This document shows, piece by piece, positions 1,243 through 30,330 of a stretch of DNA of 32,000 nucleotides. The position numbers and the translations under genes are program-made. Within the stretch, counting starts at the first letter, position 1; each line of letters begins with the position of its first letter. The stretch comes from Nonlabens ponticola. GTDB taxonomy: Bacteria > Bacteroidota > Bacteroidia > Flavobacteriales > Flavobacteriaceae. The DNA lies in the NCBI RefSeq assembly GCF_003966335.1, contig NZ_CP034549.1, positions 210,001-242,000 on the forward strand, in the 5' to 3' direction. The notes beneath the pieces were generated by a model. That model worked only from the letters and a program-made list of their open reading frames with translations. It was not told the DNA's origin and ran no database searches.

Positions 1243-1803
1243 CTAAAACTTTACCTGATCCACAGGCGTATCCTTTGAATTGAGCAAGCTTTTGCGCTTG
1301 TCGTGTAATTTAAAATGTACAAGGTTTTTTTGATCTGGAAATAGCTCAAACAGCGCCTTATAACTCAGCTCAACTGTATTCGGCTCTCTAGCTACGGGTA
1401 ATTCTATGTAGAGTAGTATCTGGTCTGCATCATATTCTGCGCCAATTACCTTGGGATCTATGTCCTTGCCGTCAATGGATGCCGTGAGGCGCTTAGGAAT
1501 ATATTTTTGAAATAGGGCTAGTTGTGACGGCAATGTTTCTGGGTTTCCTAGAATGACTTCCGTTCCAGTTCGAGCTTCCAGCACGTCCTGAAAATCATCA
1601 ATAAAGAATCTGGATACCATTTGCAGCGCTCCAGCCTTCTCACTGTATGCTACATTAGATACTGATAGATAGTATTTGTGGTCTGTGGTGTTTATGCTTT
1701 CGCGAAAGCGTAACTCCAACAAATCAACGTCTTCATGAGTAGAATTGTCAACAGGAATGGCCATACCGACAAGTGCGATCAAACCAAGAAAAAATAATTT
1801 CAT
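1243..1803 (-). CDS. Small secreted protein, DUF6702-like
   Basis: 186-aa ORF with an ATG start and N-terminal signal peptide (MKLFFLGLIALVGMA). The HKYYLSVSNVAYSEKAGALQMVSRFFIDDF block resembles the DUF6702 family that often neighbours M1 peptidase genes in flavobacteria. Palindrome copy 1 lies inside it and encodes RFRES. Confidence 0.6.
   Translation of the reverse strand: MKLFFLGLIALVGMAIPVDNSTHEDVDLLELRFRESINTTDHKYYLSVSNVAYSEKAGALQMVSRFFIDDFQDVLEARTGTEVILGNPETLPSQLALFQKYIPKRLTASIDGKDIDPKVIGAEYDADQILLYIELPVAREPNTVELSYKALFELFPDQKNLVHFKLHDKRKSLLNSKDTPVDQVKF
1696..1709. repeat. Palindrome copy 1, GCTTTCGCGAAAGC
   Basis: Exact match counted from the sequence. Right flank GTAAC. Lies inside minus-strand CDS 1243..1803, where it reads LRFRES. 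Confidence 0.97.
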
Positions 1804-1814
1804 AGAATATTAAT

Positions 1815-1838
1815 TACTGGCGCAAAATAAGCGCAGTA
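1815..1838 (-). terminator. Possible intergenic hairpin (weak terminator or attenuator) between two minus-strand genes
   Basis: TACTGGCGC-AAAATAA-GCGCAGTA forms an imperfect 8-bp stem with one bulged G. On the minus strand it is followed by AUUAAUAUUCU, which is only moderately U-rich. Confidence 0.3.
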
Positions 1839-1869
1839 CTGCTAGCTGCAAAAAGGATGCCTTACTCTT

Positions 1870-2712: not shown

Positions 2713-2783
2713 AATGATGAGCGATTTGTATTAATATAAAGTTATAAAGAGGCGCGTCAGCATTTTGCCTGTTTATTGTTAAA

Positions 2784-2791
2784 TACCTTTG
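2784..2791 (+). promoter_or_regulatory. Candidate Bacteroidota -7 promoter box (TAnnTTTG) for pepE
   Basis: TACCTTTG matches the TAnnTTTG consensus exactly and lies 17 nt upstream of the ATG at 2808. A TTTG at 2764..2767 could serve as the -33 element, but its spacing is shorter than the canonical distance. Confidence 0.35.
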
Positions 2792-2807
2792 AGCAAAGTC
2801 ACATTTT

Positions 2808-3521: not shown

Positions 3522-3553
3522 TTCCACTAACTTTAAACGATAACCACACCATC

Positions 3554-3841
3554 ATGAAACTAGACGATATACAACACAAACAAAACGACAGGCGCGGTAT
3601 CTTCTATTATAAAAAAGAAGATCACACCGTTGCGGAACTTACCTATTCCCTAGAAGATGATGTGATGGTGATTGATCATACTGAGGTGGATACCAAGCTA
3701 GAAGGAAAGGGAATGGGTGCCAAAATGGTTGAGAAGAGTTACGCTTTCGCGAAAGCTAACAACTACAAGATTAATCCACTATGTCCATTTGCCGAGGTAG
3801 TTTTTGACCGCAATCCAGACTGGAGCAGCGTGCGCGTATGA
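3554..3841 (+). CDS. Small GNAT-fold N-acetyltransferase (YjdJ-like, about 95 aa)
   Basis: Its size and the LEGKGMGAKMVEKSYAFAKANNYKINPLCPF block are typical of the short single-domain acetyltransferase family. Its TGA overlaps the next gene's ATG (ATGA at 3838..3841). Palindrome copy 2 lies inside it and encodes AFAKA. Confidence 0.7.
   Translation: MKLDDIQHKQNDRRGIFYYKKEDHTVAELTYSLEDDVMVIDHTEVDTKLEGKGMGAKMVEKSYAFAKANNYKINPLCPFAEVVFDRNPDWSSVRV
3743..3756. repeat. Palindrome copy 2, GCTTTCGCGAAAGC
   Basis: Exact match. Flanks are GTTAC on the left and TAAC on the right, giving a near 24-bp palindrome. Lies inside plus-strand CDS 3554..3841, where it reads AFAKA. Confidence 0.97.
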
Positions 3842-6278: not shown

Positions 6279-6286
6279 CTCGCTCG

Positions 6287-6328
6287 ATTAAGTATTAAGT
6301 ATTAAGTATTAAGTATTAAGTATTAAGT
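6287..6328. repeat. Perfect tandem heptanucleotide array (ATTAAGT)x6
   Basis: Six exact head-to-tail copies counted directly. The array begins 8 nt after the M48 stop codon and ends 86 nt upstream of the ATG at 6415. Confidence 0.95.
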
Positions 6329-6414
6329 AAAGATGCCTTTTTTAGTGAAGTCCGGAACTATACTTTCATCTCAACCAAGATTTAAATTTAAGTTTCAATT
6401 TAATCGTTGAAATA

Positions 6415-7030: not shown

Positions 7031-7074
7031 AATTAATTAACTGACTGCTCCACTAAAAGACTTAAAGACAAGCC

Positions 7075-10000
7075 TTACTCCTCAATCACCACTCTTATTC
7101 CTTCGCTATGACTAGAATATTCAGGTGCATACATGCATTCAAGTTGCGTGATACCGTTTGAGAATTGACCAGCGTTGTACGCACGTACATCATATTCAAA
7201 AACATAAGTTCCAGGTCTTAATTGATCAAAAAAGAAATTCGTCGCCACATCTTTAGTACTTTGATAGTAACCTAGACCATCATGATATTTGTATTTAGAA
7301 AGCACATCTACTGGTTCAAATCCACTGGCGCGCATGTCCTTGAGATGCACAAAATCAAGATCTTTTGTGCTGCGTATTTCTATGCGTACTGTAATCAAAT
7401 CGCCTATCGTTAACGGATCATTTGCTGTAATAGGGATTAACTTTTGACCAGTATCTGTATTTATTTTTTTGAATAGTTTTTTCTTGACAGACATCGGTAA
7501 ATCATCATCTATAGTGATTTTGTCTAGATTTTCAAAATATTGCCAGTACAAACCACCGTAACTTGGTACCTCGCTTTTATTCTTAACCTCAACAGTGGCA
7601 TAATCTGGTGTTACCGCCTTATCATTCAAAGACACTTTAAAGTATCCTGTTCCAGCCTCTTTTTGCACGGCATTCATCAAGGAATCTGGGATTGCTTTTC
7701 CTGCCCATTTTATCTGTGTGTTTTCCTTGACGTCTAGCCATTTGTTTCCTTGTAGCAACAGTGCGTATGTCGCATCAGCTGTGGCTTTGGTAGATTTCCA
7801 GCGATTGGGACGCTTATTTTGCAGCAACCATACTTTCAACTCTTCTACCTCTTTTTTATCACGATCCAACTCAGTAAATACCTCGATGGCCAGTGCCTGT
7901 GTCTCGATATCGCTGCTGTACCAGTTGTAGCCGTTGGTATTCTCTTTCCAGTACATTCCGTTTTCTGGGCTGTTGACGGCTGTTTGAGGCAGTCCTTCCA
8001 CGATTTTTTGGGCGAGTTGCTGCTGCCCATTACGGTACAAGCTTATCGCCATCAACAGTTGCTGGTAGATGGATTGAGAGCTGTATGAGGATTTTGCTTT
8101 CGCGAAAGCTAACTCACGACCATCTTTCAACAAACCAGACAAGCTGTTGTCATTGCCAAAACTGCGAGCGTACTGGTAGTGCCAGTAACTCATCCCAAAG
8201 TTGAATTTGTCCAACGTCTTATTGTTTCTCAAGTGGCGTTCAAAGCGATCTTTCCAATCCTTGTCCAGCGCCTTGATGGCATTGTTGTACATACGATCAG
8301 TCTGTGGGCGATCGCCATCATTGATGTTGAGTTGGTTCAAATGACCAATGCCGGCGGCGATGTGACGCGTGATGTATTCACTCTTGCTACCACCAGAAAA
8401 CCATGGGAAATAACCGCTAGATAGCTGTTTTGCCTCAAGTTGGGCAAGAATTTTCTTTTTCTCTCGAGCGGTTTTATCTAGATCAAAAAGTGTGGCGAGT
8501 CGCTGCTGTTTTTCAGCCTCTGATTGTGCGTCACGCAACCATGGCGTATGTGCGAGAATGATGGATTTGAGTTCCTCGTTCTTCTCAAGATTACTCTTGA
8601 GGCCGTCGTTTGCAGCCCAACTGTCAAAAACATCCTTGACCTTAGGATTGCTATTGAGAACATGCGCGGCTACGGAGTTTGCATAGAATCGCGAAAAAGT
8701 CTGCTCTGCACACTCGTGCTCATATTCCATAAGATAAGGAAGCGACTTGATGGCGTACCACGATGGATTTGAGGTGTACTCAAAAGTCAGCTGGTGGTTT
8801 GCTCGTGTGCTGGAAGTGGTGTTAGCCAACTTATCCATGGTCACGCTTGCCGTCTCGCCCGAGCGCACCCATAAAGCTCTAGATTCCGTCACCAGCATGC
8901 GATTGGTGAGCACCGGTAGCGTGTTTTCCTCACCATCAGAGAAATTTCCAGCCGTTGCTAGAACTCGGTACGTGACTGCTTGTGTGCCGATAGGCACGTG
9001 AAACGTCCAGTCAACGCTGGCGTTGCCATTTATAGGTGCGTCAAAATTCTTGACGCTTTTGTTGTTGCCTAGCTTTTCATCAATAGGTTGCATGGTGATG
9101 GCATCAAATAACTGCAAGGTTGCTTTACCGTTCATGATTTTGCCGGACAGATTGGCAATTTTGGTACTAAACCTAATTGTGTCAGTTTCCCGTAAAAATC
9201 GCGGCGGATTAGGAACTAGACTTAGCTCTTTTTGGGTACGCACCAATCCTTCAAACTGTGCCGTTTGCGCCTGTTTATTATGAGCAAACAATCTAAACTT
9301 CCATAAGGTCAAGGCCTCTGGCGATGTAAAACTAAACTTGAGATTTCCGTCTTTATCAGTATATAATTCTGGTAAGAAGAAAGCCGTTTCATTTAGATTT
9401 TTGCGGACTTCTATTTGCTGGAATGCGGCAGCTTGATTTGCAAGATCTGCTGCGGTGACACCTTCCTTTGTGCTTATGATAATGACGCCGTTTGATCCAC
9501 GACTACCGTAGATCGCTGTCGCGCCTGCGTCTTTGAGAACTGCGACTTCTTGGATGTCATTGGGATTTAACGCCTTGAATGTAGCTTCATCAACTATTTT
9601 ACCGTCGACGATGTATAATGGTTCTGCTGAACCATTTAAACTTGCTGCACCTCTTATTTTGACCATGGAATTAGCACCAGGTTGTCCAGAAGAAGTTATA
9701 ATTTCCAGCCCAGCTACTTGACCCTGTAAGGCAGACTCGGCCTGAACTTCTTCCATGTCACTCGATATAGTTGTGCTAGCAACGTTTGACATTCGCCTGC
9801 TTGTTGTTCTATAGCCAGTGACTACAACAGCTTCTAATGAAGCGCTCAAAACTGCATTTTGTACTAATGAGCCAGCAGTTATCGTTTTTTCATCATAACC
9901 GCTAAATGTATATTCTATGGTATCTCCAATATTGGCTTTAATCTTATAATTCCCATCAAAATCTGTGGTAACAGAATCATCATTGCCACTCACGATTACG

Positions 10001-13000
10001 GTGGCTCCTAATATTGGTTCACCACTAGCATCTGTAACCTTACCAACTATGAAACCAATTTCTGGTTTGAAGTTTATAAATTTTCTCTGAATTCCTCTTT
10101 TGTAATTGCCATAATAGTAATCGAAGTTCTCGAAACTTAAACCATGAAGATTAAAGGATTCCCTATCATCGTTAAGTGTAGGCTTAGGATTCTGTAAAAA
10201 GTGATAGAAGACATTAATCGATTGTGAAGCCAGCAAGCTTCTAGGCTTTTCAATTTCAAGTACACCTGCATAATTATAAAGACCTATACCTCGCCATGCT
10301 TTGGTAGCAAACTCGTCAAGACTCTTATCATACATACTGGCAAGAACCTCAGCTTGCATGCTGGTTTTATCTTGATCTTTTATGGTAAATGACCATTCTT
10401 CTGGCTCGCCTGGATAAAGCTTTTGTCTAAAGGTTTGTGTTGCAATGGTAAATTGCTGTCGTGGCGCGACAGGTTTGGTAACTTCAAATTGCTGGCTTGT
10501 AAATTGTCCTAGCTTTTGCACACTGTATTGAAACTTCAACGTTCTCCCATTGATGTTTTTCATCGGGAAACTCATCGTGGTCTTACCGTTGTTCAAATAA
10601 ATCCAACGAGTATCAATTACTTTTTTGAGATCATAGGTTGTCAAATACATGAACACACCATCAGCCGACGTATAAAAATCAACGACAGCTTGATCATCGT
10701 TGTAAATAGCACTATGAGTTACAATTGATGGTTGTGCCGGCCGGTCTTTATTTGCCCATATCTCTACGTCTCGTTTTTCATCTACAAAATCTTCTTCTTT
10801 TTCCAGACTCAGGTTGTTGTCTGCTTCTACTGCTTTAGCGTATAGAATGTAGGTGCCATTTTTCCATTCTCTAGTGATCGGTAATTCAATCGTTGCTAAG
10901 GAATCAGTGGTAGTAGTTTTTTTGAAAAGTATAGGTGCGTCTTTCCAGTCTTCTAGTTGCTCTTCTTTTCTCAATTCTGCATATGGGAACATTTTACGAT
11001 ATTCCTCAACAGATAATTCATGGAATTTTGCATCATTCAATTGATCCTCGATAACGACGTGATCAGCTGCTGATGATCGGCGCACCTGCAATTCAATATT
11101 TGCTTTTACAACTTCACCATTGAGGTTTTGTGCTTGAAGTTTTACGGTATTATTTTCTACCGATATAGGTCCTTGCACTAACATTTTAATCTCGATAGGC
11201 TTCTCACCTACTCGCACGCCGGTATATGCTTTTCTAGTCTCGCCGTTGACATCAGTTACCGACACGTCAATCGTATAATTGTAGATCAGGTTTCTCAGGT
11301 CTACATCATTGGCTATTTTCTCACCTGATTTGAAAGTGATGTCAAATTTTCCAGAGGCATCGGTAGTGATAGTATCAGTTGCAATAATGGGATCTGGCTC
11401 ATGAGAATAAGTACGTCTCAAGTATGGAATATTATCTGAATCTGGTACATTATGAATCGCTTGAGTGACATTATATATTACTTGAGCGCCAGTAATATTA
11501 CTACCTAACAGTGCCTTTGCTTTTCCCGTTACCGTAACTGAGTCACCAAAAACATACGTCTGGGTTACCGGTTCAAATTCTGTCTTAAAGCGAGGACGTT
11601 TGTATTCCTCAACTTTGAAAGAAACGTAACCAGCGTCAAAATCATCAATGAGATCCCAATAAGAATCCTCATCATCATAATCTATATCTATGGAAAATGA
11701 ACCCGTCAATCCATCTTCAGGAAGTATAAATGAGCCGTTGACACTACCGAATTCATTGGTTTCAACTGCTGTCTCAAAAACTTCATCACCAGAGGCATTA
11801 TCAACTGTCACAGTTAATTTTTTGTTTGATACAACTTTGGATTCACCATTCTTGTTTTCTACGAGAATGCTTTTGTAGTAAACTTTTTGCCCTGGTCGGT
11901 AAATGGCTCTATCTAGGTAGGTGTAGACTTTTACATTTCGGTAATCACTTTCTCTGTATTTACTAAAATAACCACGACTCAATGAAGTCCTTACCGTGTC
12001 ACCCTGGTTAATGGCTTCCAGCGAATATTGATAATACCGTCGAGGTAATGTGAAATCTACCTGACCATTTTTATCCGTTTTACCATGGAAGGATGTATAA
12101 CTCTTATTGCCTCTGTAAATGTTATATGAAACGTTAGTAAGTGGTTTTCCTGTGTTTCTTGAGGTAGCGGTGATGGTAGTTTGATTACTTGTCATACTAG
12201 TCGTCAAGGCGATATCAGTTACCTTCAATACAGAACCCGCTTTCATTTTCTTTTGGTCATTGGCATTTAAAAGGACTAAGTATGTTCCCATATCCATTCC
12301 AGACAACGCAAACTCATAGGTATGTAAAAACGTATCATCGCCTTGTGGCAAATTCAATTTCTTGATTTGAGCAAAATTATTTTTCTCACGCGCCTTTTGA
12401 AAATATGCGTTGTGAATAGAATCTCTATTTCCTTTGATGCGGTCAAAATCGTGTGGTACCCTGATAAAATAGACGGTTGCGTGGGTTACGTTTTGGTAAC
12501 TAGTTACACCTCTATAAGGTTGATTAGGCAATACGTTTTGTTGCAGCTGTGTACTTAATTTAGGTGCGTAGATGATGGATAGCAGATTAGTGCAATTCAC
12601 GCTACCCAAGGTTTCTGGATATTTCTCGATTGCGGATTTTGCAAGCTTAATGGCATTGGTACGATAGGCTTTTTGTTCTTCTGTCTCACCATTCTTAGAA
12701 ACCGTATAATAATATTGTGCTAGGCTATATTGCAACAATGTCACCTCTGGCACCGCAGCGTATTCATAAATGAGGTGTTGAATACCGTTCTCAAATTCTG
12801 CAATTTCTTGACTGCTGCTTATTTGTGATCGAGCATAATTGAATCGTTCATTGATAATTGATAAAAATGGTGCCGTTTCCTTACGTTTTTTGTGCAGCTG
12901 TTCTAGTTGGGCATATAATCGCAGGACATCATATTTACTGTAAATTGTGTCGTTTACTGGCCTTTTAAGATTCAGTATCTCTTGAGTAGGCAGGAAGGCG

Positions 13001-13653: not shown

Positions 13654-13764
13654 AAACAACACTTAACTTTTAAAAATACTCAATCTCACGATGAACTGTC
13701 AATGGATGCTGGCACAATTAGCATACCGCATCTGCTTTGGTATCCTTTTTGATATTTTTGAAAC

Positions 13765-14508
13765 ATGAAAATGCTATTCCTATTCACAGCCCTTATTTTT
13801 TGTTATTCTGTTAGTGGTCAGTCAGCTTTCGCGAAAGCGGAACAACTATCCCAGCAATCCAACTACAAACAAGCCATACCGCTCTACAAGGAAGCATTGC
13901 AAGCGGCACCAAAAGACGCCAAAATCTTGATGGCAACGGGAAAAGCATACGGCGAGCTGAAGCAGTTTGAAGAAGCCAGCGAGGTCTATAAAAAACTACT
14001 CGCTATCGATGAATCCATCGCCGACTACCACTTTTACTACGGTGGCTCACTGGGATTGTATGCCAAAAACAGCTCAAAACTCAAAGCGCTGGGCATGCTG
14101 GACGATGTAAAATTTCACTTAAAAAAAGCTGCCGAACTTGATGAAAACCATATAGAAACACGCTGGGCATTAGTCCAGATGTACTGCGAGCTACCGGGAA
14201 TCGTAGGCGGATCTGTTGCAATATCAAGAGAATATGCCGCAGAGCTCGCCAAGATATCGCCAGTCGATGGCTACCTAGCCACAGGCTGGATCGAGATCTA
14301 TGAAGAGAACTACAAGGAAGCAGAAGTTGCCCTAAAAAAAGCAGTAGAAATAGGCAACTCGCCAACCACATACCTCAAACTGGCCGAACTATACAGCAAG
14401 CACATGGATCGCGATGATCTTGCCATAAAAACGCTGCAAAAAGCAGATTCTCAATCTGATGATAAGCGTATTAATGTGGCATTAAAAAGATTAAAAAGTA
14501 AAAACTAG
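13765..14508 (+). CDS. Secreted tetratricopeptide-repeat (TPR) protein
   Basis: Signal peptide MKMLFLFTALIFCYSVSGQ. Repeated A-x-x-Y-x-x-A-L helix-pair patterns follow (YKQAIPLYKEALQAAP, FEEASEVYKKLLAI, YKEAEVALKKAVEI). Palindrome copy 4 encodes AFAKA just after the signal peptide. Confidence 0.65.
   Translation: MKMLFLFTALIFCYSVSGQSAFAKAEQLSQQSNYKQAIPLYKEALQAAPKDAKILMATGKAYGELKQFEEASEVYKKLLAIDESIADYHFYYGGSLGLYAKNSSKLKALGMLDDVKFHLKKAAELDENHIETRWALVQMYCELPGIVGGSVAISREYAAELAKISPVDGYLATGWIEIYEENYKEAEVALKKAVEIGNSPTTYLKLAELYSKHMDRDDLAIKTLQKADSQSDDKRINVALKRLKSKN
13825..13838. repeat. Palindrome copy 4, GCTTTCGCGAAAGC
   Basis: Exact match. Right flank GGAAC. Lies inside the plus-strand TPR gene, where it reads AFAKA. 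Confidence 0.97.
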
Positions 14509-18835: not shown

Positions 18836-18840
18836 TGAAC

Positions 18841-19820: not shown

Positions 19821-19829
19821 CCAGCTAAT

Positions 19830-20174
19830 TTAAAATTTATCCAGATGAGTATGCTTAAATGCATCAGGATATTTGAGACCGTAACCCAGCATCCTGTCAA
19901 AGCCTATGTGAGCAAATAGAATCCAGCCAGCCATTTGAACCCATTCTGTATTAAGCAGGTATCCAGCCGCGATACAAAGCGTGGCAATCATCAGGTGATG
20001 AAACAAATTATAGGTAATTGCGCCTACTTTGGTGTTCACCACATACCCTAGCATACTTATATCTGGCGCAAGGAAAAAACCTGCAAACCACCACCAGTTA
20101 AATCCTGCCAGTCCATAACCAGCAATTCCTGCGAGCATCAACGCCAGCCCTTCTAGTTGTAATTGAATTTTCAT
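19830..20174 (-). CDS. DUF4260-like small membrane protein
   Basis: 114 aa and very hydrophobic. The FFLAPDISMLGY and HIGFDRMLGYGLKYP blocks match my recollection of DUF4260. Confidence 0.6.
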   Translation of the reverse strand: MKIQLQLEGLALMLAGIAGYGLAGFNWWWFAGFFLAPDISMLGYVVNTKVGAITYNLFHHLMIATLCIAAGYLLNTEWVQMAGWILFAHIGFDRMLGYGLKYPDAFKHTHLDKF

Positions 20175-20992
20175 AAAATCTTATACAAGATAGGCCTTGA
20201 AGGTGCTGCATCATTTTCAATAGGTGCGATTTGTAAATCCAGAACATACATTCCATCGGCGGCGGCATCAGGCACATAGATCAGCTCTGTGATGGTGGCA
20301 TCTAGCCGTTGCTCGCCATCATAATCCCAGAATTCCTTATGCGCCACTAGTGCACCATTGTCCTTTTCTTTATCGACACTGGGTAAATCGATAAGGACGT
20401 GTTTGATTCCGCTTTCGCGAAAGCGTAACATCACACCAGCATCCAGATAAGGTGGATTTGTATTGCTATAATTCTTGCTTTTCTTGCTCGTTGGATTGGG
20501 TGTCGTTCTAATGATTACGGCATCAATTTCCTGATCCAAATCCTCAAACATACCTGCGGTAATCACCTGATCATCGCCACGAGACTCAGGATTTACCGTC
20601 ACTAATTGTGCTACAAAAAAAGTGTTTTTAAGTGCGTCATTGACGCTGTGAAATTCTTCTGTGATGTGCCCGATACATTCCGTATGCGTCCCATGACTAT
20701 GCGGATTAAAAAACACATCGTTGAAGTTTGTGCTGCCACCTAGCGCGACCTTGCCTACATATCCATCTACCTCTACATGCGTGATCTTGGGCTGGTCGAT
20801 ATACCACGCGCCCACGCCGGCGTCGTGTTGTACGGCGAGACTTATGTCGATGGGTTGCTGTAGATCAATTTGATAATGAGAATTATTGAGGAGTATGTTT
20901 GATGTCACAGGATCGTCGTTTGATGGTGAGGTTTTGATCTGGCAGCTTATGAGTAAGCAAAGCGCGCAAACCAGAAATAAAAATTGCTTCAT
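20171..20992 (-). CDS. Putative cyclase family protein (kynurenine formamidase-like fold), secreted or lipoprotein
   Basis: 273 aa with signal peptide and Cys (LCLLISC). The HSHGTHTECIGH block resembles the HxGTHxDxPxH cyclase motif. Palindrome copy 5 encodes RFRES. There are 4-nt overlaps at both ends. Confidence 0.55.
   Translation of the reverse strand: MKQFLFLVCALCLLISCQIKTSPSNDDPVTSNILLNNSHYQIDLQQPIDISLAVQHDAGVGAWYIDQPKITHVEVDGYVGKVALGGSTNFNDVFFNPHSHGTHTECIGHITEEFHSVNDALKNTFFVAQLVTVNPESRGDDQVITAGMFEDLDQEIDAVIIRTTPNPTSKKSKNYSNTNPPYLDAGVMLRFRESGIKHVLIDLPSVDKEKDNGALVAHKEFWDYDGEQRLDATITELIYVPDAAADGMYVLDLQIAPIENDAAPSRPILYKIL
20411..20424. repeat. Palindrome copy 5, GCTTTCGCGAAAGC
   Basis: Exact match. 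Flanking C and G extend it to a 16-bp palindrome, and the right flank is GTAAC. Lies inside the minus-strand cyclase-like gene, where it reads LRFRES. Confidence 0.97.
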
Positions 20993-22125
20993 GATGTAAG
21001 GTTAAGCATGAATAACTCGCTGGCTATGCCATCACTCAGGAATTTTCCCTTGCGCGTTACCAGTAGCGTCTTATCGTCTAAATATAATAAATGATCCTTG
21101 AGATAGGTCGCGGCTTGTTCCAGCAGGTATTCCCTAAAACGCAGACCATATTCTTTCTCAACATGAACCAGCGACACACCATAAACCGTACGCAAACCGG
21201 TCATTACATACTCATTGTATCGATCGATGATCGTGAGTTCCTCTACTTCCTGCGGTAGATTTCCTGCCTCGATAGCCTTGATGTATTTGACATTGTTGTT
21301 GATATTCCACGCACGTCTATTTCCATCAAAACTGTGCGCGCTAGGCCCAATTCCTAGATAGGATTTGCCAGTCCAGTAAGCTGTATTGTTACGCGAGAAA
21401 AAACCTTTTTTACTGAAGTTTGAAAACTCATAGTTCTCATAACCATGCAACTGCATTACATCCAGTAAAATATTAAACTGCCGCTGCGCCTGCTCATCAT
21501 CAACTGGCTGCATCACGCCTTTATCGATGAACTTCTTGAGTGCTGTGCCGTCCTCTACCGTCAACGCATAGCTGGAGATATGCGGCACATCCAGCTCAAT
21601 CGCTTGATACAAATTCTCACGCCACTGCTCATCTGTCAAACCAGGAATACCATAAATCAGGTCTATAGATATGTTGGGAAACAGCTTTCGCGAAAGCTGA
21701 ATACTCTCCATCGCCTCTATTGCATTATGAGCTCGATTCATCAATTTGAGATCCTGCTCGTGAAATGATTGCACTCCTATGCTTAATCTATTGATTTGAG
21801 ATGCTGCTAGCGACTCAATCTTGGCTGGTGTGAGGTCATCTGGATTAGCTTCTAGGGTGATCTCTAGATTAACGGCGCAATTATATAGGTTAAATACTTC
21901 CTTAAGTATTAGGTCGATTTCTTCAACTTCCAACACACTAGGTGTACCACCACCAAAGTAGATGCAACTCACCTCGACATCCTTAAACTCGTGACGACGC
22001 AACCTTAACTCCTCGCACAACGCATTGATCATAAATGATTTATTCTTAAGTGAAGTCACAAAATGAAAGTCACAATAATGACAAGCCTGCTTGCAAAAAG
22101 GAATGTGAATATAGATACTTGCCAT
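20989..22125 (-). CDS. hemW: Radical SAM heme chaperone HemW (coproporphyrinogen III oxidase-like)
   Basis: The track ORF starts at TTG 22134. I prefer the ATG at 22125, which gives MASIYIHIPFCKQACHYCDF with the CxxxCxxC radical-SAM cluster motif, followed by GGGTPS. Palindrome copy 6 encodes LSRK. Confidence 0.9.
   Translation of the reverse strand: MASIYIHIPFCKQACHYCDFHFVTSLKNKSFMINALCEELRLRRHEFKDVEVSCIYFGGGTPSVLEVEEIDLILKEVFNLYNCAVNLEITLEANPDDLTPAKIESLAASQINRLSIGVQSFHEQDLKLMNRAHNAIEAMESIQLSRKLFPNISIDLIYGIPGLTDEQWRENLYQAIELDVPHISSYALTVEDGTALKKFIDKGVMQPVDDEQAQRQFNILLDVMQLHGYENYEFSNFSKKGFFSRNNTAYWTGKSYLGIGPSAHSFDGNRRAWNINNNVKYIKAIEAGNLPQEVEELTIIDRYNEYVMTGLRTVYGVSLVHVEKEYGLRFREYLLEQAATYLKDHLLYLDDKTLLVTRKGKFLSDGIASELFMLNLTS
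21684..21697. repeat. Palindrome copy 6, GCTTTCGCGAAAGC
   Basis: Exact match. Flanks CA and TG extend it to an 18-bp palindrome, CAGCTTTCGCGAAAGCTG. Lies inside minus-strand hemW, where it reads QLSRKL. Confidence 0.97.
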
Positions 22126-22301
22126 ACACAACAAAAGTAGTTTACAAACGTTAGGGTACCGTTAAAGAATCTCTCAAACCCTAAATCGAGGTCAAACATT
22201 GTTAAATCCTATATTTTAACTACGTGCATTCCTTATATTGAGTAGGTTCGGCATGGTTTATGAAACTATTAACACGAACCTAAAAAACTGATAAAAACAT
22301 T

Positions 22302-23252
22302 ATGATATACCGTCTCTTTTTAATCTTATTTCTAGCTGGAACCCTTGCCACTAGCGCAGCCGATAAATTACCAATGGTAGATATGTCTGTTGAGAGTAAA
22401 GAGGTTCTAACTTTTCAAAATGCTAAGCTCCAATTGAATCTTAAAAATCAATTGATGGCTAATCCAAAGTGGAGATCGCTTATCAATCAAAAGCGCTTAT
22501 CGTTAAGTATTGTCGATCTCAATGATCCAGATAACATTAAATACGCGAGCATCAATGGTGCAAACATGATGTATGCAGCTAGCTTGCCGAAAATCGCAGT
22601 ATTATATGCGGCCATGGACGCCATCGAGAATGGTGAACTAAAAGACACACCTAAAGTGCGTCAAGACATGTGGCTCATGATATCTAAGTCAAATAATGCA
22701 GCGTCTACACGTATGATTGACCGAGTAGGTTTTCAGAAAATCGAAGACTTGATGTGCGATCCTACAAATCCATTTTATGATAAAGATGGTGTTGGTGGAT
22801 TGTGGGTTGGTAAACGATATGCAGCCCAAGGAAAACGCAATCCAGAACCTATCAAAGGTTTAAGTCACGCTGCCACTACAGACGCTGTTGCAAAATTTTA
22901 CTACCAACTTGCTACTGGTCAATTGATCAATGAGCAACGCAGTAAAGAGATGCTAGACATCATGGAAAATCCTAGCCTGCACCACAAGTTTGTGAATACG
23001 CTTGATCGTATTGCACCACAAGCACGCTTGTTTAGAAAAAGTGGATCATGGAGAAACTGGCACAGTGATTCCATTCTGGTTTGGGGCGACAATGGACGCA
23101 AGTATATTCTTGTGGCGTTGGTAGAAGATCCTGCAGGTGAAAACATTATTAGAAGTTTAGTAAAGCCAGCGGAATTGGCGATGCGCAAATCTGTTATCTT
23201 GCCTACACTACTTGATACAGAAGATGGAGCAACTATCCAACAGGGTACGTAA
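22302..23252 (+). CDS. Secreted serine hydrolase, class A beta-lactamase fold
   Basis: Signal peptide MIYRLFLILFLAGTLATSAA. Motifs occur in the canonical order: S-x-x-K (ASLPKIA), S-x-N (SKSNNAAS) and K-S-G (RKSGSW). Confidence 0.75.
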   Translation: MIYRLFLILFLAGTLATSAADKLPMVDMSVESKEVLTFQNAKLQLNLKNQLMANPKWRSLINQKRLSLSIVDLNDPDNIKYASINGANMMYAASLPKIAVLYAAMDAIENGELKDTPKVRQDMWLMISKSNNAASTRMIDRVGFQKIEDLMCDPTNPFYDKDGVGGLWVGKRYAAQGKRNPEPIKGLSHAATTDAVAKFYYQLATGQLINEQRSKEMLDIMENPSLHHKFVNTLDRIAPQARLFRKSGSWRNWHSDSILVWGDNGRKYILVALVEDPAGENIIRSLVKPAELAMRKSVILPTLLDTEDGATIQQGT

Positions 23253-26049
23253 AATATTTGACATTAGGAGTGGCGAGCTTTCGATCTCGTTGCTCATGCA
23301 ACTATACATTTTCTTAATCATAAGTGCATTGCTCGTAGTAAAACCTACGGTCAATGCACTTTTTCTTTCTGAGCTAGGAGCGGATGCTCTTGCCGAGGCT
23401 TTTATTATAATCGCAGTTGCCGCTGTAGTAGGTTCCTTTCTATATAATAGATCGCTTGAGCGCTTTAAACTCAAGAAACTTATACGTGGTACATTAATCG
23501 TTTTTACGGTTATTTTTTCCATCATGGGCGTGCTCGTCATGCTGGGCAATTTCGGGCCTATTCTTGCCTATTTTTTCTATACGACCGTCGCACTATTTGC
23601 GTTGCTGGCGACCTCCCAATTTTGGGTGATGGCAAATGTGGTCTTCAACGTACGTGAGGCCAAAAGACTTTTTGGTTTCATAGGAGCTGGTGGTATTGCC
23701 GGTGGTATTGTAGGTGGTTACATGACATCATTGCTAGCTGAATCGTTAGGAAATGGAGCCTTATTGATTATTGCTGCTGTTTTGATCGCATCATGTATTT
23801 GGGTGATGAATGCCATTTGGCGTACTCGAGTCAATAAGTTGAGTAGTTTTAAGCGCAAGGAACGAGCTACGGTAAGTAGTGAGAATAGCGTCAAGCTTAT
23901 CCTTAATTCAAAGCATTTGACGGCTCTTGCGGCGGTAATTGGTATAGGTGTTCTTGTCGCAAAGCTTGTTGACTATCAATTTAGCTATATATCATCGCGA
24001 GCGATTCCAGATTCACAGGAATTGGCATCCTTTTTTGGTTTCTGGTTCTCGACATTTAATATTGTATCGTTAGCAATACAGCTATTTATAACCAGACATA
24101 TTTTATCTCGATCAGGTGTTAGCGCAAGTTTAGGAGTGCTGCCGTTGGGATTAGTATTGTGTGGCATTGCCCTACTATTAGTTCCAGAACTCTGGATCGT
24201 TGTCGTTATGAAAGGTCTAGATGGTAGCCTTAAACAATCATTGCATAAAAGTGCGGTAGAACTGCTTGCCTTGCCCATCCCTAGCGATGTAAAAAATAAG
24301 ACCAAAACCTTCATCGATGTAGTTGTAGATAGCCTTGCCACAGGCCTTGCTGGATTGATACTCATATTTATTATACGCGCCTTTGACCTAGCACCAGCAT
24401 ATATAACCGTACTCATCATTCTACTGGTAGTGGCTTGGGTGATCATGATTATTAAAGTGCGCGACGCCTACTTTGGTACATTTAAAGAACAGATCATTAC
24501 TCGTGAGCAAATTAAGCTAGAGAAACGATCCAATACGCGCATACGTAATAACATGCGCGTCATTTTTGAATCTGGTGGTGTTGAAGATATCATGTACATG
24601 CTTGCTCGCGTACCAGAACTAGCCCATAAGTCGCTTAAGAATCCGCTGGTCAAATTACTTGTGCACAAAAACCCAAAAGTTAAAGCAGCTGCGATACGAC
24701 AACTTAAGCACGTAGATCGTGGTCAGCCTTTAGGTCAAGTTCAAGATTTGATCTATGAAAAAAATGACGAGGTCGTTCTTGCAGCGATGCAATACCTCAT
24801 GTCTAAGGATACTAAATATCCTGAACAATTCTTTGAAGCCTATCTAGATCACGAGAGTGATTATATCTCAAGTGCCGCGCTGCTATGCCTTGCCCAAGAG
24901 ACTGAGGATAATCCAAAATTAGCATCAAAATATAATCTTGACCTGCGCATCAATCTCTTTCTAGATGAACTGGATCGCCATGAGGACAACTTCCGTAAAG
25001 GTGAGATCATTGAATTAATAAAGGCAATAGGATATGCCAAAGGTGACAACCGCCACAAGTTTATACTGCGCTATCTTAAAAATCCTGATGAGGATCTTCA
25101 TAAAGCAGCCTTGGTCGCTGCAGGAAACACTTCTCATGAACGATTTCTTCCTATTTTACTCGATGAATTAAAGGAAGCACGCTTTCGCGAAAGCGCAATC
25201 AAAGCCATCTCATCCTATGGCAACAGCATTATCAATTATTTAAAAAAGCGTTACACTGACCCTAGCGCAGCGCTGGCTCACAAGAAATACATTCCAGATG
25301 TGTTGATAGATCTGGGAACTAACAAATCTCTGCGTGCGGTATTGCAATTGACTCAATCCGGTAGCCCAGAGATACGCACGCGTACCACCGACAAATTATA
25401 TAATTATAAAAAGGCCAATGGTGATTTAGAAATACCACAAAAAATATATGCCCGATTGATACGTCAGGAATGTGATGAATACATGACATTACAGCAATGC
25501 TATTACAGCCAGCGCGTGGTAGAGCGTTCTAAACTACATCCTGAACGTGTTATAGATATAACTGAGACAGGCTCACGTGAAGAGCTGATTAAACTTTTAT
25601 CTAAACGTATGGATGACGGTATCAAGCGCATCTTTAATATCCTTGCATTGCATTTTAATACAAGGGATGTCTTTATCGCTTTTAAAGGATTGACTAGCGA
25701 GAAAAAGGAAACAAGATCTGCGACGCTAGAGTTTATGGAAGGATTGATAACGCGCAACTATAAGTCACTACTCTTTCCAATATTAGAACAAGGTATCAAT
25801 AATGCAGAGATAGATCCCAACACAGTTGCTGATCGCGTACAACTATTAGAAGAAGATAAATGTTACTTACGAATGCTGGATACGGAAGATCGCAAGCTAG
25901 GATTACTTACCATCCAGATTATTGCAGATTCTTCAAATAAAAAGTGGTTGCCCATACTTGTACGAGCAACCACTAATAAGGATTCTAAAATCGCTGCCGC
26001 TGCATCGCGTGCCTACCAGCAAATGAGCGGTGTTTCACGCACCGCGTAA
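23224..26049 (+). CDS. Polytopic transporter (ATP:ADP antiporter/Npt-like, MFS-type) fused to a C-terminal HEAT-repeat domain
   Basis: The track start at 23212 is TTG. I take the ATG at 23224 (MEQLSNRVRKIFDIRSGELSISLLMQLYIFLII...). About 12 hydrophobic helices fill the first ~430 aa. About 500 aa of helical repeats follow (NPKVKAAAIRQL, NDEVVLAAMQYL, DEDLHKAALVAAG, ESAIKAISSYG, SPEIRTRTTDKL, DSKIAAAASRAY). The N-terminal pattern resembles the COG3202 Npt1/Npt2 family, recalled from memory. Palindrome copy 7 encodes RFRES. Confidence 0.7.
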   Translation: MEQLSNRVRKIFDIRSGELSISLLMQLYIFLIISALLVVKPTVNALFLSELGADALAEAFIIIAVAAVVGSFLYNRSLERFKLKKLIRGTLIVFTVIFSIMGVLVMLGNFGPILAYFFYTTVALFALLATSQFWVMANVVFNVREAKRLFGFIGAGGIAGGIVGGYMTSLLAESLGNGALLIIAAVLIASCIWVMNAIWRTRVNKLSSFKRKERATVSSENSVKLILNSKHLTALAAVIGIGVLVAKLVDYQFSYISSRAIPDSQELASFFGFWFSTFNIVSLAIQLFITRHILSRSGVSASLGVLPLGLVLCGIALLLVPELWIVVVMKGLDGSLKQSLHKSAVELLALPIPSDVKNKTKTFIDVVVDSLATGLAGLILIFIIRAFDLAPAYITVLIILLVVAWVIMIIKVRDAYFGTFKEQIITREQIKLEKRSNTRIRNNMRVIFESGGVEDIMYMLARVPELAHKSLKNPLVKLLVHKNPKVKAAAIRQLKHVDRGQPLGQVQDLIYEKNDEVVLAAMQYLMSKDTKYPEQFFEAYLDHESDYISSAALLCLAQETEDNPKLASKYNLDLRINLFLDELDRHEDNFRKGEIIELIKAIGYAKGDNRHKFILRYLKNPDEDLHKAALVAAGNTSHERFLPILLDELKEARFRESAIKAISSYGNSIINYLKKRYTDPSAALAHKKYIPDVLIDLGTNKSLRAVLQLTQSGSPEIRTRTTDKLYNYKKANGDLEIPQKIYARLIRQECDEYMTLQQCYYSQRVVERSKLHPERVIDITETGSREELIKLLSKRMDDGIKRIFNILALHFNTRDVFIAFKGLTSEKKETRSATLEFMEGLITRNYKSLLFPILEQGINNAEIDPNTVADRVQLLEEDKCYLRMLDTEDRKLGLLTIQIIADSSNKKWLPILVRATTNKDSKIAAAASRAYQQMSGVSRTA
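25181..25194. repeat. Palindrome copy 7, GCTTTCGCGAAAGC
   Basis: Exact match. Flanking C and G extend it to 16 bp. Lies inside the HEAT domain of the plus-strand transporter gene, where it reads RFRES. Confidence 0.97.
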
Positions 26050-26052
26050 TTA

Positions 26053-27300: not shown

Positions 27301-30215
27301 GATTTTATCTTTTTATGTAAGTATAATTCGGTATTCAAATTGACATCTTCATCAATGGATGATAGGTACTCAGAATTAGTGGCTTGATCATTCTCTACAA
27401 ATGGTCTTATCTGGAATAAATAGAGCTTATCATCCTTGAAGCCCAATTCAATATCCCACGCTCCTTTATAAGAACCATTCTTTGATCCAGGCATGGTGGC
27501 GTGAGCTTCCTTGGCAAATTCTCTGATCGTTTTAAGGTCCTTTTTTGTCAGGATACTGTTGTCAAAATCCACATGCTCCATAACAGATCCACCAGTGTCT
27601 GGCAATCGTCTACGCTTATTCTCACGTGCTGGTGAGATTAATAGACCATCGCCATCTTGATTGACTAAATATGTTTCTGCAGCTTGACCATCAACCGCAC
27701 CACCAGCGCCACGACTCATGGCAACGGTTACACTATTCTCGTCGTTGTTGATAAAGTCTTTAGTAATCAAAACACCGCTGTAATCCACATCTACTGTAGG
27801 AATAATTAAGATCGATGGATAAACATTTTCAGGATTTTCAAGATATGCCTGTCTCCATTTAAAGCTGCGCTCCGTGTAAGGTGATGCCCATACATCCTTG
27901 ATTCCTTTAATGATTTTCTCGCGCTCAACTGCGTTAAAAACAGTTAGATTCAGTCCAGCGCCGGTAAACTCTTCTAGGTCTTCCATATTGGTATCACTAC
28001 GCAAAAACACAGGTACATCACCCATGGAACCACCCAATACGTTTTTAAAATCACTTTCCAGCTGACCTAAAAATGCTGGTTTCAATTCCATCTTATTGAT
28101 GGCATCTCTCAACTTAGAAAATTCTGCTAGCTGGTATTTGATGACCTCTGATTCGTCGAGATCATTGCCTCGCATGGTTTCTGCGGTTTTGAAAATCTCA
28201 GTTAGATATTCCCAATACGTTTGACCACGATCAGGCATTTGTTGATTCATGTGATCTTTGAATACACCAAAGGGTATTACAATCCCATTAACTACGTGTT
28301 GCGGGAACAGTTGCTTCAGCTGCCCTAGATTGGCGGCTTTTGGACCACTTAAAATTCCACTGTCCGCGCTGCTCACCTCACTCATATTAAGCGGCATAGT
28401 GCCGTTTAATTTTAATTTGCCTTCTGGAATGCGTATAGTTTTCTTTTCTTTTCTTTCAGAGCCAAAAAGATCGCGTTCCTCGCCACTCATCTCATCGACC
28501 TCTTTGAGAACCACAGTTCCTCGCGGACTCACCGCATAGAATACTTGCTTACCATCTAGCGACTTTAAATCATCGAGATTGTCAGTAGAGATGGCCGCAT
28601 TAGGTATTCCTAGATTACGAGCCAGCAATTGAACGTGAGACACTAAGTTACCTTCACTAACAGTTGCGATACCGGCTACAGGTTTCAAATCACTCGGTGG
28701 TCTGTCAAAAAGGTAGATCTTGTTAGGATCAACGGTCATGCCTTCGGCATTTCCTTCCACTACGACTAATTCGCCTTTAGCATATCCAGCATTCAGTCCT
28801 CTTATGGTACTAGCGTTATCTACAGCCTGTACTTGGCTTGTCAATCCTATTTGTCTTGAAACTAGCGCGCCAAGGTTGCCAATGGCATCACCCAGCGGCA
28901 ATAACAAAGAACTACGTATGCGATCGTCGAGGAAACCATAAGCTTTAGGTTCAAATTCCATATAACGCTCCACATCATCACCGTAAATAGCATTTACCAT
29001 TCCTGTACCCCATTCTACCTGACTGCGTGCAGCGCTGATAAATTTGAGTAACTCGCTAGCCTTGATTGTCTCACCTTCTGCTTTGAATAATTGATTTTCA
29101 ATAGCATTCCATTCCCATTGCTCTACATATCCAGCTGCTGCCAGCGCTTCACTCAAGGAATGAACTTTATCCAGGTGATCTTGCAATGTCTCTGGTTCCC
29201 ATTGTGCGGTTTTTTGAAAAATTAGTTCTTCCAGTCTCAAGCTCAATTCTAGAGCAGATGTTCTGCGAGTTCCGCGTTTATCATCCTTTATATTCGTGCG
29301 TATATCGCACATCAAGTTTGCCGTAGCAGGTATCAATACAGATGGATTTGTCTCATTAGAGTAGGATTGAGAAAACTGTTCAGCTTGCTTTCTAATATAT
29401 GAATCCTGTGGCCAATCGCTCACCATTTTTTGAAGCTCAGAGACTGCAACAGGTTCAAAAAATTCCTGCATAATGTCAACGAGCTTGTCAAATTCTTCTC
29501 GTTGCTTAAAGCTTAACTTCTCATTGTTTTCCTTTACCCATTCCTGTACAGCGATGATATCTTTAGCCTCTGGATTACCATGTATTTTGATACGTATGTC
29601 CATGAACTTAGGGTGACGCTCTGCAAGTGTTTTACTCAAACTGCGCACTTCTTGTGCGAGGTTTGTATCACCATCATGCGGTAGATCTCTTAAGCTTTCA
29701 CGCACTAGAAAGAAGTCGCGATCAATAATCTCATCGCTGCCTAAAACGGTATAATAAAACTTGCGACCCCATTCCTCTTCATCCTCAATTTGTTTGGCAC
29801 CTCGATAAAACCTACTGCGCTCTTGTATCCAGCCATTGTCGGCAGCAACCAGGAAATTATTAAGTTGGTATTGCTTTAAACGGCTGTGGTTATTCGGGCC
29901 GTCCCAGAATTCCCATAAATCTGCAGATGCCAGTATCTCACCAAAGAAGATGTGCTCTTTGTCTGCAAGACGCTTGACCTCATCCTTATAACTTGCATGC
30001 TGGATGCCACCACCTATGGCATCTGGACATGGATCCTTAGAGCCACGGCGCGATCCATCGGCACAGAACCATTCTATACGCTTGTACGGTCCACGATCCA
30101 GTTGCCTGTAATCGTCGATCATCGCCTCAATACGGTCGTTTGTAAATTCTTGAGCAGTTGATTCCAGACAGCAGCACGCCATCAATAAAATCAGTGGTAG
30201 TAACAATTTATTCAT
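27297..30215 (-). CDS. PEP-utilising enzyme family protein: signal peptide + unknown N-domain + swivel His domain + C-terminal PPDK_N ATP-grasp domain
   Basis: The track ORF starts at TTG 30380. The internal ATG at 30215 gives a canonical signal peptide, MNKLLLPLILLMACCCLESTAQ. The swivel domain is GIATVSEGNLVSHVQLLARNLGIPNA, with the His codon at 28635..28637. ATP-grasp blocks are GPKAANLGQL, LRSDTNMEDLEEFTGAGLNLTVFN, VWASPYTERSFKWRQ, RGAGGAVDG and WDIELGFKDDKLYLFQIRP. Confidence 0.8.
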   Translation of the reverse strand: MNKLLLPLILLMACCCLESTAQEFTNDRIEAMIDDYRQLDRGPYKRIEWFCADGSRRGSKDPCPDAIGGGIQHASYKDEVKRLADKEHIFFGEILASADLWEFWDGPNNHSRLKQYQLNNFLVAADNGWIQERSRFYRGAKQIEDEEEWGRKFYYTVLGSDEIIDRDFFLVRESLRDLPHDGDTNLAQEVRSLSKTLAERHPKFMDIRIKIHGNPEAKDIIAVQEWVKENNEKLSFKQREEFDKLVDIMQEFFEPVAVSELQKMVSDWPQDSYIRKQAEQFSQSYSNETNPSVLIPATANLMCDIRTNIKDDKRGTRRTSALELSLRLEELIFQKTAQWEPETLQDHLDKVHSLSEALAAAGYVEQWEWNAIENQLFKAEGETIKASELLKFISAARSQVEWGTGMVNAIYGDDVERYMEFEPKAYGFLDDRIRSSLLLPLGDAIGNLGALVSRQIGLTSQVQAVDNASTIRGLNAGYAKGELVVVEGNAEGMTVDPNKIYLFDRPPSDLKPVAGIATVSEGNLVSHVQLLARNLGIPNAAISTDNLDDLKSLDGKQVFYAVSPRGTVVLKEVDEMSGEERDLFGSERKEKKTIRIPEGKLKLNGTMPLNMSEVSSADSGILSGPKAANLGQLKQLFPQHVVNGIVIPFGVFKDHMNQQMPDRGQTYWEYLTEIFKTAETMRGNDLDESEVIKYQLAEFSKLRDAINKMELKPAFLGQLESDFKNVLGGSMGDVPVFLRSDTNMEDLEEFTGAGLNLTVFNAVEREKIIKGIKDVWASPYTERSFKWRQAYLENPENVYPSILIIPTVDVDYSGVLITKDFINNDENSVTVAMSRGAGGAVDGQAAETYLVNQDGDGLLISPARENKRRRLPDTGGSVMEHVDFDNSILTKKDLKTIREFAKEAHATMPGSKNGSYKGAWDIELGFKDDKLYLFQIRPFVENDQATNSEYLSSIDEDVNLNTELYLHKKIKS

Positions 30216-30316
30216 TGTCTCAAAAATATGTTTATCCACAGCACGAGCACCGCTGTTTAAGAGCAGTTTAACTCGCTGTAGTGCTCCATAGTTGCGATGA
30301 TGATGGTGGTTATTTT

Positions 30317-30330
30317 GCTTTCGCGAAAGC
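30317..30330. repeat. Palindrome copy 8, GCTTTCGCGAAAGC
   Basis: Exact match. Left flank ATTTT, right flank GTAAC. It lies in the probable divergent promoter region 30216..30443, and only the unlikely TTG-extended ORF would translate it (LSRK). Confidence 0.97.

Follow-up and report, generated by a model that had tools for sequence, protein, structure and literature searches.

A long, exact palindrome iterated through the chromosomes of Nonlabens and Dokdonia

RESULTS

A palindrome iterated in Nonlabens and Dokdonia DNA

A 32-kb stretch of Nonlabens ponticola DNA, the window of this report, contains eight exact copies of the perfect 14-bp palindrome GCTTTCGCGAAAGC. The same word was found in seven Nonlabens species and in many Dokdonia, in genes as well as between them, with few imperfect versions and with a minimum distance between neighbours. 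It appears to be a recognition site at the level of DNA, and not a peptide motif, an RNA signal or a mobile element. Our leading interpretation, held tentatively, is that it is a self-DNA tag for uptake and/or recombination.

No copies beyond the eight exact ones were found in the window when up to two mismatches were allowed. The exact 14-mer did not occur once in 100 dinucleotide-preserving shuffles of the window (mean 0.00), and a search of such shuffled windows with ≤2 mismatches gave a mean of 0.13. Eight copies against an expectation of zero agree with the preliminary description of this DNA, which had been made from the letters alone and had held that the repetition could not be chance. 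Its eight positions were recovered unchanged on recounting (Table 1), and its estimates of ∼40% GC, judged by eye, and ∼4 kb mean spacing compare with measured values of ∼0.41 overall (0.37–0.45 per 2 kb) and 4.09 kb. The hyper-iterated palindrome is thus confirmed as real, and the earlier likening to highly iterated palindrome 1 (HIP1) of cyanobacteria is supported. The only other iterated long k-mer in the window was a 7-bp tandem repeat at 6287–6329, consisting of 6.1 perfect units of ATTAAGT in the spacer after an M48 peptidase gene, with a 6/12-bp AT-rich repeat beyond it at 6380–6403.

A genome collection was scanned with one genome per species, read in 8-kb blocks. The overwhelming majority of matches belonged to Dokdonia, Nonlabens and unnamed Flavobacteriaceae, in many cases two or three to a block, and the matches in other phyla were single and at chance level. 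The HemW protein encoded in the window is 100% identical to that of N. ponticola. The loci used for closer comparison were picked via HemW and not via the motif, and therefore give an unbiased density. Exact copies per 21-kb HemW locus numbered seven in Nonlabens sp. YIK11 and in N. spongiae, and six each in N. antarcticus, N. xylanidelens and N. dokdonensis. Together with the window, these five loci hold 40 copies in 137.7 kb, one per 3.4 kb, and not a single 1-mismatch copy. The corresponding 21-kb loci of Croceibacter, Leeuwenhoekiella, Gillisia and Mesonia have no copies, and no alternative iterated palindrome, or 'dialect', was detected in these or in other outgroup loci. The count in related genera that the preliminary description had called for was zero in these four, and the motif is a property of a clade.

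The pooled host DNA (790 kb) contained 184 exact copies, against ∼0.001 expected, and the number per Nonlabens or Dokdonia chromosome is estimated at ∼700–1000. On complete chromosomes the matches are spread along the length without clustering. Two loci from uncultured assemblies labelled 'Aquimarina sp.' (L071 and L110) also carry copies with typical flanks, one of them at an orthologous position, which may mean that the motif ranges more widely than these two genera or that the bins have been given the wrong name.

Copies are exact, keep their distance and are enriched in non-coding DNA

The discrimination between perfect and imperfect copies is very sharp. Alongside the 184 exact copies, the pooled host DNA held only 13 with one mismatch, ∼7% of the exact number, and 15 with two. 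Ten of these 15 retain a 12-mer, the outer GC of one side being all that is missing, and none is a symmetric double mutant, the product expected of quasi-palindrome template switching, which we rejected as a source of the motif for this reason. The 8-mer TTCGCGAA was never found outside the motif in the pooled host loci, and a T flank is rare at free TCGCGA sites (11 of 146 half-sites; loci L002–L126, 790 kb). Because mismatched copies are scarce, TTCGCGAA is never free and T flanks are rare, the sequence space near the motif has been emptied. In the same loci the commonest context of free TCGCGA is ATCGCGAT, at 21 of 73 sites, which could reflect a second, weaker palindrome preference or could follow from the depletion of near-motif sequences.

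TCGCGA itself is neither avoided nor favoured: outside the motif it was seen 96 times against 95.5 expected. Since its frequency is as expected, nothing points to restriction acting against the core, and a restriction-type avoidance of TCGCGA is unsupported. A simple link to a methyltransferase, as suggested earlier, or to a restriction system gains nothing from these statistics.

Spacing is strongly over-dispersed. The smallest of 87 gaps was 748 bp; none was <500 bp and three were <1 kb, where random placement predicts 12.3 and 23.2, respectively. Neighbouring copies thus repel one another or interfere. Copies are also ∼3-fold enriched in non-coding-like DNA, which accounts for 23–28% of them and for 8–10% of random positions. 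A motif selected as a peptide was rejected, as the three phases give three different peptides and ∼25% of the copies are non-coding.

Copies arise by substitution, persist and turn over

In the window, seven of the eight copies lie inside Pfam-supported genes and one in a divergent intergenic spacer (Table 1). The mapping against gene position and codon frame proposed in the preliminary description shows all three codon phases and genes on both strands; three copies are read as AFAKA, three as RFRES and one as LSRK.

Table 1. Positions of the palindrome in the window, and one example of its flanks
Feature	Extent	14-bp core	Adjoining bases	Location	Gene strand	Phase	Peptide or remark
Copy 1	1695..1710	1696-1709	GTAAC after	DUF6702 gene 1243-1803	minus	1	RFRES at aa 32
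Copy 2	3742..3757	3743-3756	GTTAC before	GNAT acetyltransferase gene 3554-3841	plus	0	AFAKA at aa 64, inside Pfam domain
Copy 3	8095..8110	8096-8109		2195-aa alpha-2-macroglobulin-like gene 7075-13662	minus	0	AFAKA at aa 1852
Copy 4	13824..13839	13825-13838		TPR protein gene 13765-14508	plus	0	AFAKA at aa 21
Copy 5	20410..20425	20411-20424	GTAAC after	putative cyclase gene 20171-20992	minus	1	RFRES at aa 190
Copy 6	21683..21698	21684-21697		hemW 20989-22134	minus	2	LSRK at aa 146, radical-SAM domain
Copy 7	25180..25195	25181-25194		TLC/HEAT transporter gene 23212-26049	plus	1	RFRES at aa 657
Copy 8	30316..30331	30317-30330	GTAAC after	intergenic, divergent genes
Flank footprint, example	1666..1739			around copy 1			present at every copy

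The orthologs of these genes show how copies come about. At all seven sites where the motif is present in one ortholog and absent from another, the codon alignment is gapless and only substitutions separate the two. Amino acids change along with the gain of a copy, as in ELRLRSSE to ELRFRESE (RLRSS to RFRES), or in HemW, where IEFSKTEF corresponds to ISLSRKRF. These alignments show that copies came from substitutions in sequence that was already there and partly similar, with the protein altered as well.

Once formed, a copy stays letter-perfect for far longer than neutral sequence would. Five window copies fall in the region shared with YIK11, and each is exact in that genome, although the two species are only 39–49% identical at third codon positions and 72% in the flanks of the shared sites. 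In the close pair YIK11 and N. agnitus, whose identity is 95.3%, no difference was seen at 98 motif positions, whilst the flanks differ at the background rate of 4.8%. The rate of single-nucleotide polymorphisms (SNPs) within 30 nt of the motif, 4.8%, lies within the 4.2–5.5% seen elsewhere, and a mutation hot spot beside the motif was rejected on this ground.

Individual copies show the same persistence over different depths. Copy 4 is exact in YIK11 and N. agnitus, and copy 5 in these and N. antarcticus, the same position in Croceibacter being occupied by the unrelated ATATTAGGCGTTGT. Copy 6, in hemW, is kept in four Nonlabens species and absent from four other species without any indel (IEFAVP, IELAKK, IEFSKT). 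Five Nonlabens species keep copy 7; at its position N. dokdonensis shows a 12/14 match, either a proto-site or a decayed one, and N. xylanidelens a more diverged one. Copy 8 is upstream of two genes, by 102 nt from the real ATG (30215) of a PPDK_N-like gene and by 114 nt from an acyl-CoA dehydrogenase gene (30444). We regard it as intergenic because an open reading frame (ORF) extension around 30317 is absent from the orthologs and the spacer alignment puts the start at 30215. Its 15-mer CGCTTTCGCGAAAGC is invariant in five Nonlabens species, in which the remaining spacer is barely alignable.

Sites are common to the closer species (N. ponticola, YIK11, N. agnitus and N. antarcticus), and the deeper species hold copies at other positions in the same genes, which indicates that sites turn over. 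Between Dokdonia and Nonlabens, the sole overlapping locus pair (L093 and L104) has no copy in its shared part, and a search with the acyl-CoA dehydrogenase returned no Dokdonia protein among the best 120.

A repeated, dispersed palindrome could also be a miniature mobile element (a miniature inverted-repeat transposable element, a repetitive extragenic palindrome or a Rickettsia palindromic element-like repeat), an intrinsic terminator, or an artefact of assembly or vector sequence. To this set of explanations we give next to no credence. Filled and empty orthologs align without indel, which rules out an inserted element; no insertion was seen at any of the seven sites, and past ±5 nt the arms show neither complementarity nor homology. 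The earlier statement that the copies are not part of a longer dispersed element is thus upheld, as is the statement that they are not terminators. Seven of the eight window copies lie inside genes, there is no T-tract, the right flanks are A/C-rich, and a terminator scan gave a single weak match, antisense and within a gene, among the eight. An artefact, named in the preliminary description as a way in which it could fail, is ruled out by in-frame copies in conserved genes and by massive enrichment that recurs across dozens of independent isolate and metagenome-assembled genome (MAG) assemblies of Nonlabens and Dokdonia.

No gene for a motif-binding partner was recognized in the window, where Pfam annotation of 18 ORFs gave housekeeping genes only. 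The alpha-2-macroglobulin-like protein carries an internal CarboxypepD_reg domain and a TonB-receptor Plug domain, an unusual combination. A 589-aa protein encoded at 17066–18835 (minus strand) has MutS domain V only and is syntenic in Nonlabens and Croceibacter (orthologs in L121–L123 and L127); its gene has a motif copy near the 5′ end in YIK11, N. agnitus and N. antarcticus and none in N. ponticola.

A 16-bp core with strand-asymmetric flanks

Alignment of ∼180 copies extended the conserved palindrome to 16 bp, (C)GCTTTCGCGAAAGC(G), that is CGCTTTCGCGAAAGCG. Position −1 is a C in ∼80% of arms, and 127 of 184 copies have the complete 16-mer. Further preferences were found at −2 to −5, with T favoured at −3 and −4; GTTAC precedes the core, read in the sense of the gene, in four of the eight window copies. 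The 16-bp core is identical in the two genera and the outer flanks differ: Dokdonia favours TAC-core-GTA, whilst Nonlabens favours TTCC, TTAC or TTTC. At −2, A is found in 58% of Dokdonia arms, compared with C, T and A in 38%, 34% and 25% of Nonlabens arms, and T at −4 is found in 69% of Nonlabens arms and 48% of Dokdonia arms.

Around the core lies a compositional footprint of ∼25–30 nt on each side. It is symmetric about the site, in that on either strand the 5′ arm is poor in C and rich in G and T (C at 0.10 against a background of 0.19), so that along the plus strand G and T prevail to the left, A and C to the right. The footprint is alike in coding-upstream, coding-downstream and intergenic-like arms and in both genera, and none was found around chance occurrences of the motif in other phyla. 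The footprint is weaker where orthologs have no copy: in a small sample, bases violating the skew numbered 8.6 per 50 at orthologous positions lacking the motif and 5.4 where it is present, against a background of ∼10. T also peaks at −13, −10, −7 and −4 of the 5′ arms, a 3-nt period that was seen in intergenic-like copies and in phases lacking a third-position match as well (small samples of 26–110 arms per class); it may be a weak extended consensus and not codon structure.

The two arms of a copy matched each other at 5.9 of 20 positions, compared with 6.0 of 20 for shuffled partners. Since the arms share composition only and not complementarity, a long hairpin was rejected. A Chi-like word in the G/T-rich arms was likewise not found; there is only a mild excess of GATG(A/G), probably from codons. 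The preliminary description had called the flanks non-homologous. This holds for their sequences, which differ from copy to copy, but not for the extended palindromic consensus and the strand-asymmetric composition that all share.

An RNA-level hairpin had been among the roles first considered; it would be small, with a 5–6-bp stem and a CGCG loop, and might serve the processing or the stability of transcripts. The 24-mer consensus does fold at −8.7 kcal/mol (z = −3.5), and the order of GU-rich arm, hairpin and AC-rich arm is its own reverse complement, so that it would be the same in either transcript. The copies in their native contexts, however, fold no better than shuffled sequences (z from −0.03 to −1.4), and an Rfam scan of the window gave zero matches. 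A stem would tolerate compensatory changes, but none were seen: all 14 positions are invariant and symmetric double mutants are absent. Copies occur, moreover, in genes oriented either way and in spacers with divergent promoters. Given the three phases, both orientations, ∼25% non-coding copies, the lack of an Rfam match and the weak folding in context, this is the least supported of the roles proposed earlier, and we consider it very improbable.

Some phage-like contigs have the motif and two lytic phages lack it

No copies were found in P12024S and P12024L, two lytic phages of Nonlabens with 35.7 kb of DNA each, where ∼10 would be expected at host density. Their lack of TCGCGA is uninformative, only 0.1 being expected. 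Two IMG/VR contigs of flavobacterial GC content do have copies at host-like density, three in 12 kb of L216, which encodes portal, capsid, head-tail connector and HNH proteins, and three in 11 kb of L180, which encodes an S49 protease and a depolymerase. These regions may come from prophages or from free temperate phages. Since phage-like contigs carry copies and the lytic phages none, DNA resident in these hosts can apparently acquire the motif and purely lytic DNA does not. P12024S and P12024L (L246 and L247) are depleted in several 6-bp palindromes, with CCTAGG found 0 times against 6.7 expected, GGTACC 0 against 6.3, GTATAC 1 against 9.2 and CATATG 1 against 7.0, which suggests host restriction pressure; both phages encode DNA methyltransferases.

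The absence of copies from lytic phages would suit a mark of self used by a defence or nuclease system, in which a long-site endonuclease, nickase or modification enzyme tells the chromosome from an invader by programmed nicks or protective modification. An exact palindrome suits a homodimeric nuclease or modification enzyme, and a site-centred, strand-asymmetric footprint is the expected trace of repeated 5′-to-3′ processing from a central cut or nick. Such a mark is nevertheless decidedly improbable in our view, as no nuclease or modification gene is linked to the motif, there is no local excess of substitutions and phage-like contigs with copies exist. The number of sites is a further difficulty, since we know of no defence system that uses ∼900 long chromosomal sites.

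The phage data also bear on the possibility that the motif has no function and is the by-product of sequence-specific repair, methylation or gene conversion that turns near-matches into the perfect palindrome, much as Elhai reportedly proposed methylation-dependent repair for HIP1. Conversion of this kind would account for the scarcity of copies with one or two mismatches, for the lack of free TTCGCGAA and the rarity of T flanks at free TCGCGA, for the presence of copies in resident but not in lytic DNA, and for flanks that have been remodelled along with the motif. It would, however, demand a specificity of 16 bp, far above that of any methyltransferase or Vsr-type repair system known to us, and the abundance of TCGCGA outside the motif is exactly as expected. 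Neutral conversion predicts neither the strong mutual repulsion of copies nor their 3-fold enrichment in non-coding DNA, and orthologous conservation across saturated synonymous divergence argues for maintenance site by site. We therefore hold a functionless by-product to be improbable.

DISCUSSION

A candidate tag for self DNA

The behaviour of the palindrome fits uptake sequences and HIP1 best, and it is for this reason that we favour, tentatively, a tag for uptake and/or recombination. The fit lies in the origin of copies by point mutation, their occurrence in all frames, the enrichment in non-coding DNA, the even spacing, the core shared between genera with lineage-specific outer positions, and the conservation of copies. 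Like an uptake sequence, the motif is over-represented, evenly spaced, shared by related taxa and created by point substitution; like a HIP, it is over-represented by orders of magnitude across a clade, lies in all frames and between ORFs, and is conserved between genomes. Even spacing is also what the molecular-drive models of uptake sequences by Maughan, Wilson and Redfield, from 2010, are said to predict.

On this interpretation the site would be read as duplex DNA by a putative homodimeric protein, which a perfect 16-bp palindrome with near-digital discrimination suggests. The tag would mark DNA as 'self' for genetic exchange, as an uptake signal and/or a recombination hot spot in the manner of the uptake signal sequence (USS) of Pasteurellaceae and the DNA uptake sequence (DUS) of Neisseriaceae. 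Fragments with a perfect copy would be taken up or recombined preferentially, and this bias (molecular drive), together with selection, could create copies, perfect them and space them evenly. The asymmetry of the flanks might then come from processing begun at the site's centre: if a cut or nick were made there, both 3′-ended strands would be the C-poor, G/T-rich ones. RecA prefers G/T-rich, C-poor strands. In its most specific form, which we find possible but doubtful, the proposal is of a long palindromic self-DNA signal, the first in Bacteroidota, in which a dimeric protein recognises and probably cuts or nicks the 16-mer, DNA enters or invades from the site centre, which would account for the G/T-rich 3′-ended flanks, and the resulting bias has written ∼700–1000 perfect and evenly spaced copies into each Nonlabens and Dokdonia chromosome at the expense of protein sequence.

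Several points weigh against such a tag. The uptake sequences known so far are 9–12-mers that lack symmetry and occur about once per kb, and a 16-bp palindrome as exact as this is more usual for a DNA-binding protein or nuclease that is dimeric and cytoplasmic. The phage-like contigs L216 and L180 carry copies, which would not be expected from an uptake tag unless they come from long-resident temperate phages. SNP density beside the motif is not raised between YIK11 and N. agnitus, so that frequent mutagenic breakage is not evident, and we only infer the cut-and-resect account of the flanks. No candidate receptor, nuclease or methyltransferase was found. The literature searched contained no report of natural competence for Nonlabens or Dokdonia; within Flavobacteriaceae competence is known for Riemerella, for which no specific uptake sequence has been established (PMC7965970).

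Chromosome organisation as an alternative

The two earlier suggestions that are still live are the DNA-uptake signal and a dense binding site for a protein. In the second case the sites would bind a chromosome-organising protein in the style of Noc at the Noc-binding site (NBS), SlmA at the SlmA-binding site (SBS), MatP at matS or ParB at parS, that is, a dimeric nucleoid, segregation or condensin-loading factor for which sites would be needed at intervals of a few kb, each of them kept perfect through selection on chromosome function. We consider this unlikely, though deserving of serious attention. A perfect palindrome of 14–16 bp is the classic format for such a protein, orthologous copies are conserved, including an intergenic one, the spacing is even with a minimum distance, and copies are spread over complete chromosomes without clustering. 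For HIP1, a role in nucleoid structure was proposed by Xu et al. from conservation and periodicity (PMC5861425).

The likeness extends to details, as the NBS (ATTTCCCGGGAAAT), parS, SBS and matS are palindromes of 12–16 bp that can sit in genes, and the motif shares the TTTC…GAAA half-site flavour of parS and NBS. The half-sites are 2 bp further apart in these two, however, with N4 in place of the N2 of TTTC-N2-GAAA. The known sites also number in the tens per genome, against several hundred here: the estimated 700–1000 are 10–40 times the number in any chromosome-organising system known to us. Binding governed by affinity usually tolerates degenerate sites, as those of the known systems do, but here 1-mismatch copies are only ∼7% of exact ones. 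Finally, the sites are forced into coding sequence at a cost in amino acids and have turned over between species.

Relation to known iterated sequences

The tag interpretation places the motif beside USS and DUS, with which it has many features in common: presence in related genera, an origin by point mutation in coding and non-coding DNA, enrichment in non-coding DNA, even spacing, a core with weaker flank preferences, and lineage 'dialects' at the outer positions. USS and DUS, in contrast, are short and asymmetric, are found in demonstrably competent hosts and, in the case of DUS, have the receptor ComP, whereas the present motif is a long perfect palindrome.

With HIP1 (GCGATCGC) and Elhai's alternate HIPs it shares a GC-rich, perfectly palindromic, hugely over-represented and clade-specific sequence, located within genes in all frames and also between genes, with orthologous conservation and non-random spacing. 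The HIP1-like behaviour noted in the preliminary description is borne out in these respects. The role of HIP1, long obscure, has lately been tied to transformation and recombination. Its sites show conservation and a non-random spacing (PMC5861425), its presence raises natural transformation in a way that resembles Chi or an uptake sequence (bioRxiv 10.1101/2024.09.10.611283), and a role as an uptake sequence has been put forward (bioRxiv 10.64898/2026.06.24.733823). The motif described here differs in being 14–16 bp long, with preferences reaching to ∼24 bp or more, instead of 8 bp, in being ∼5–10 times less dense and much more sharply exact, and in belonging to Bacteroidota. No cognate methyltransferase is known for it, and its ∼25-nt strand-asymmetric footprint and hard minimum spacing have, to our knowledge, not been described for HIP1.

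Chi sites, to which HIP1 has been likened (bioRxiv 10.1101/2024.09.10.611283), resemble the motif in their density of about one per 3–5 kb and in the G/T-rich 3′-ended strands that flank it. Chi, however, is a short, asymmetric, orientation-dependent 5–8-mer that is read as single-stranded DNA.

The literature searched contained no paper with the 14-mer, nor any iterated palindrome or uptake sequence for Nonlabens or Dokdonia, in line with the earlier remark that no flavobacterial description was known. The motif belongs with HIP1 and USS, and apparently stands as an undescribed member set apart by its length, exactness, phylum, minimum spacing and strand-asymmetric footprint.

Implications

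Few oligomers are iterated over whole genomes, USS/DUS, Chi and HIP1 being examples, and each has brought to light a machine that handles DNA. The present one is unusually long and exact, comes from a phylum without a comparable description, and is found in ecologically important, cultivable and sequenced marine bacteria (Nonlabens and the MED134-type strains of Dokdonia). Any mechanism proposed for it must explain the near-absence of imperfect copies, the minimum spacing of ∼750 bp and the site-centred, strand-asymmetric footprint. The copies in HemW and in the cyclase show that a DNA-level signal can repeatedly overwrite the amino-acid sequence of conserved enzymes. If the motif is indeed an uptake or recombination tag, sequence-selective natural transformation would be widespread in abundant marine flavobacteria, and adding the motif to constructs could make Nonlabens and Dokdonia genetically tractable, as was recently the case for HIP1 in cyanobacteria. 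It would also provide a second, independent system beside HIP1 in which to learn what iterated palindromes do.

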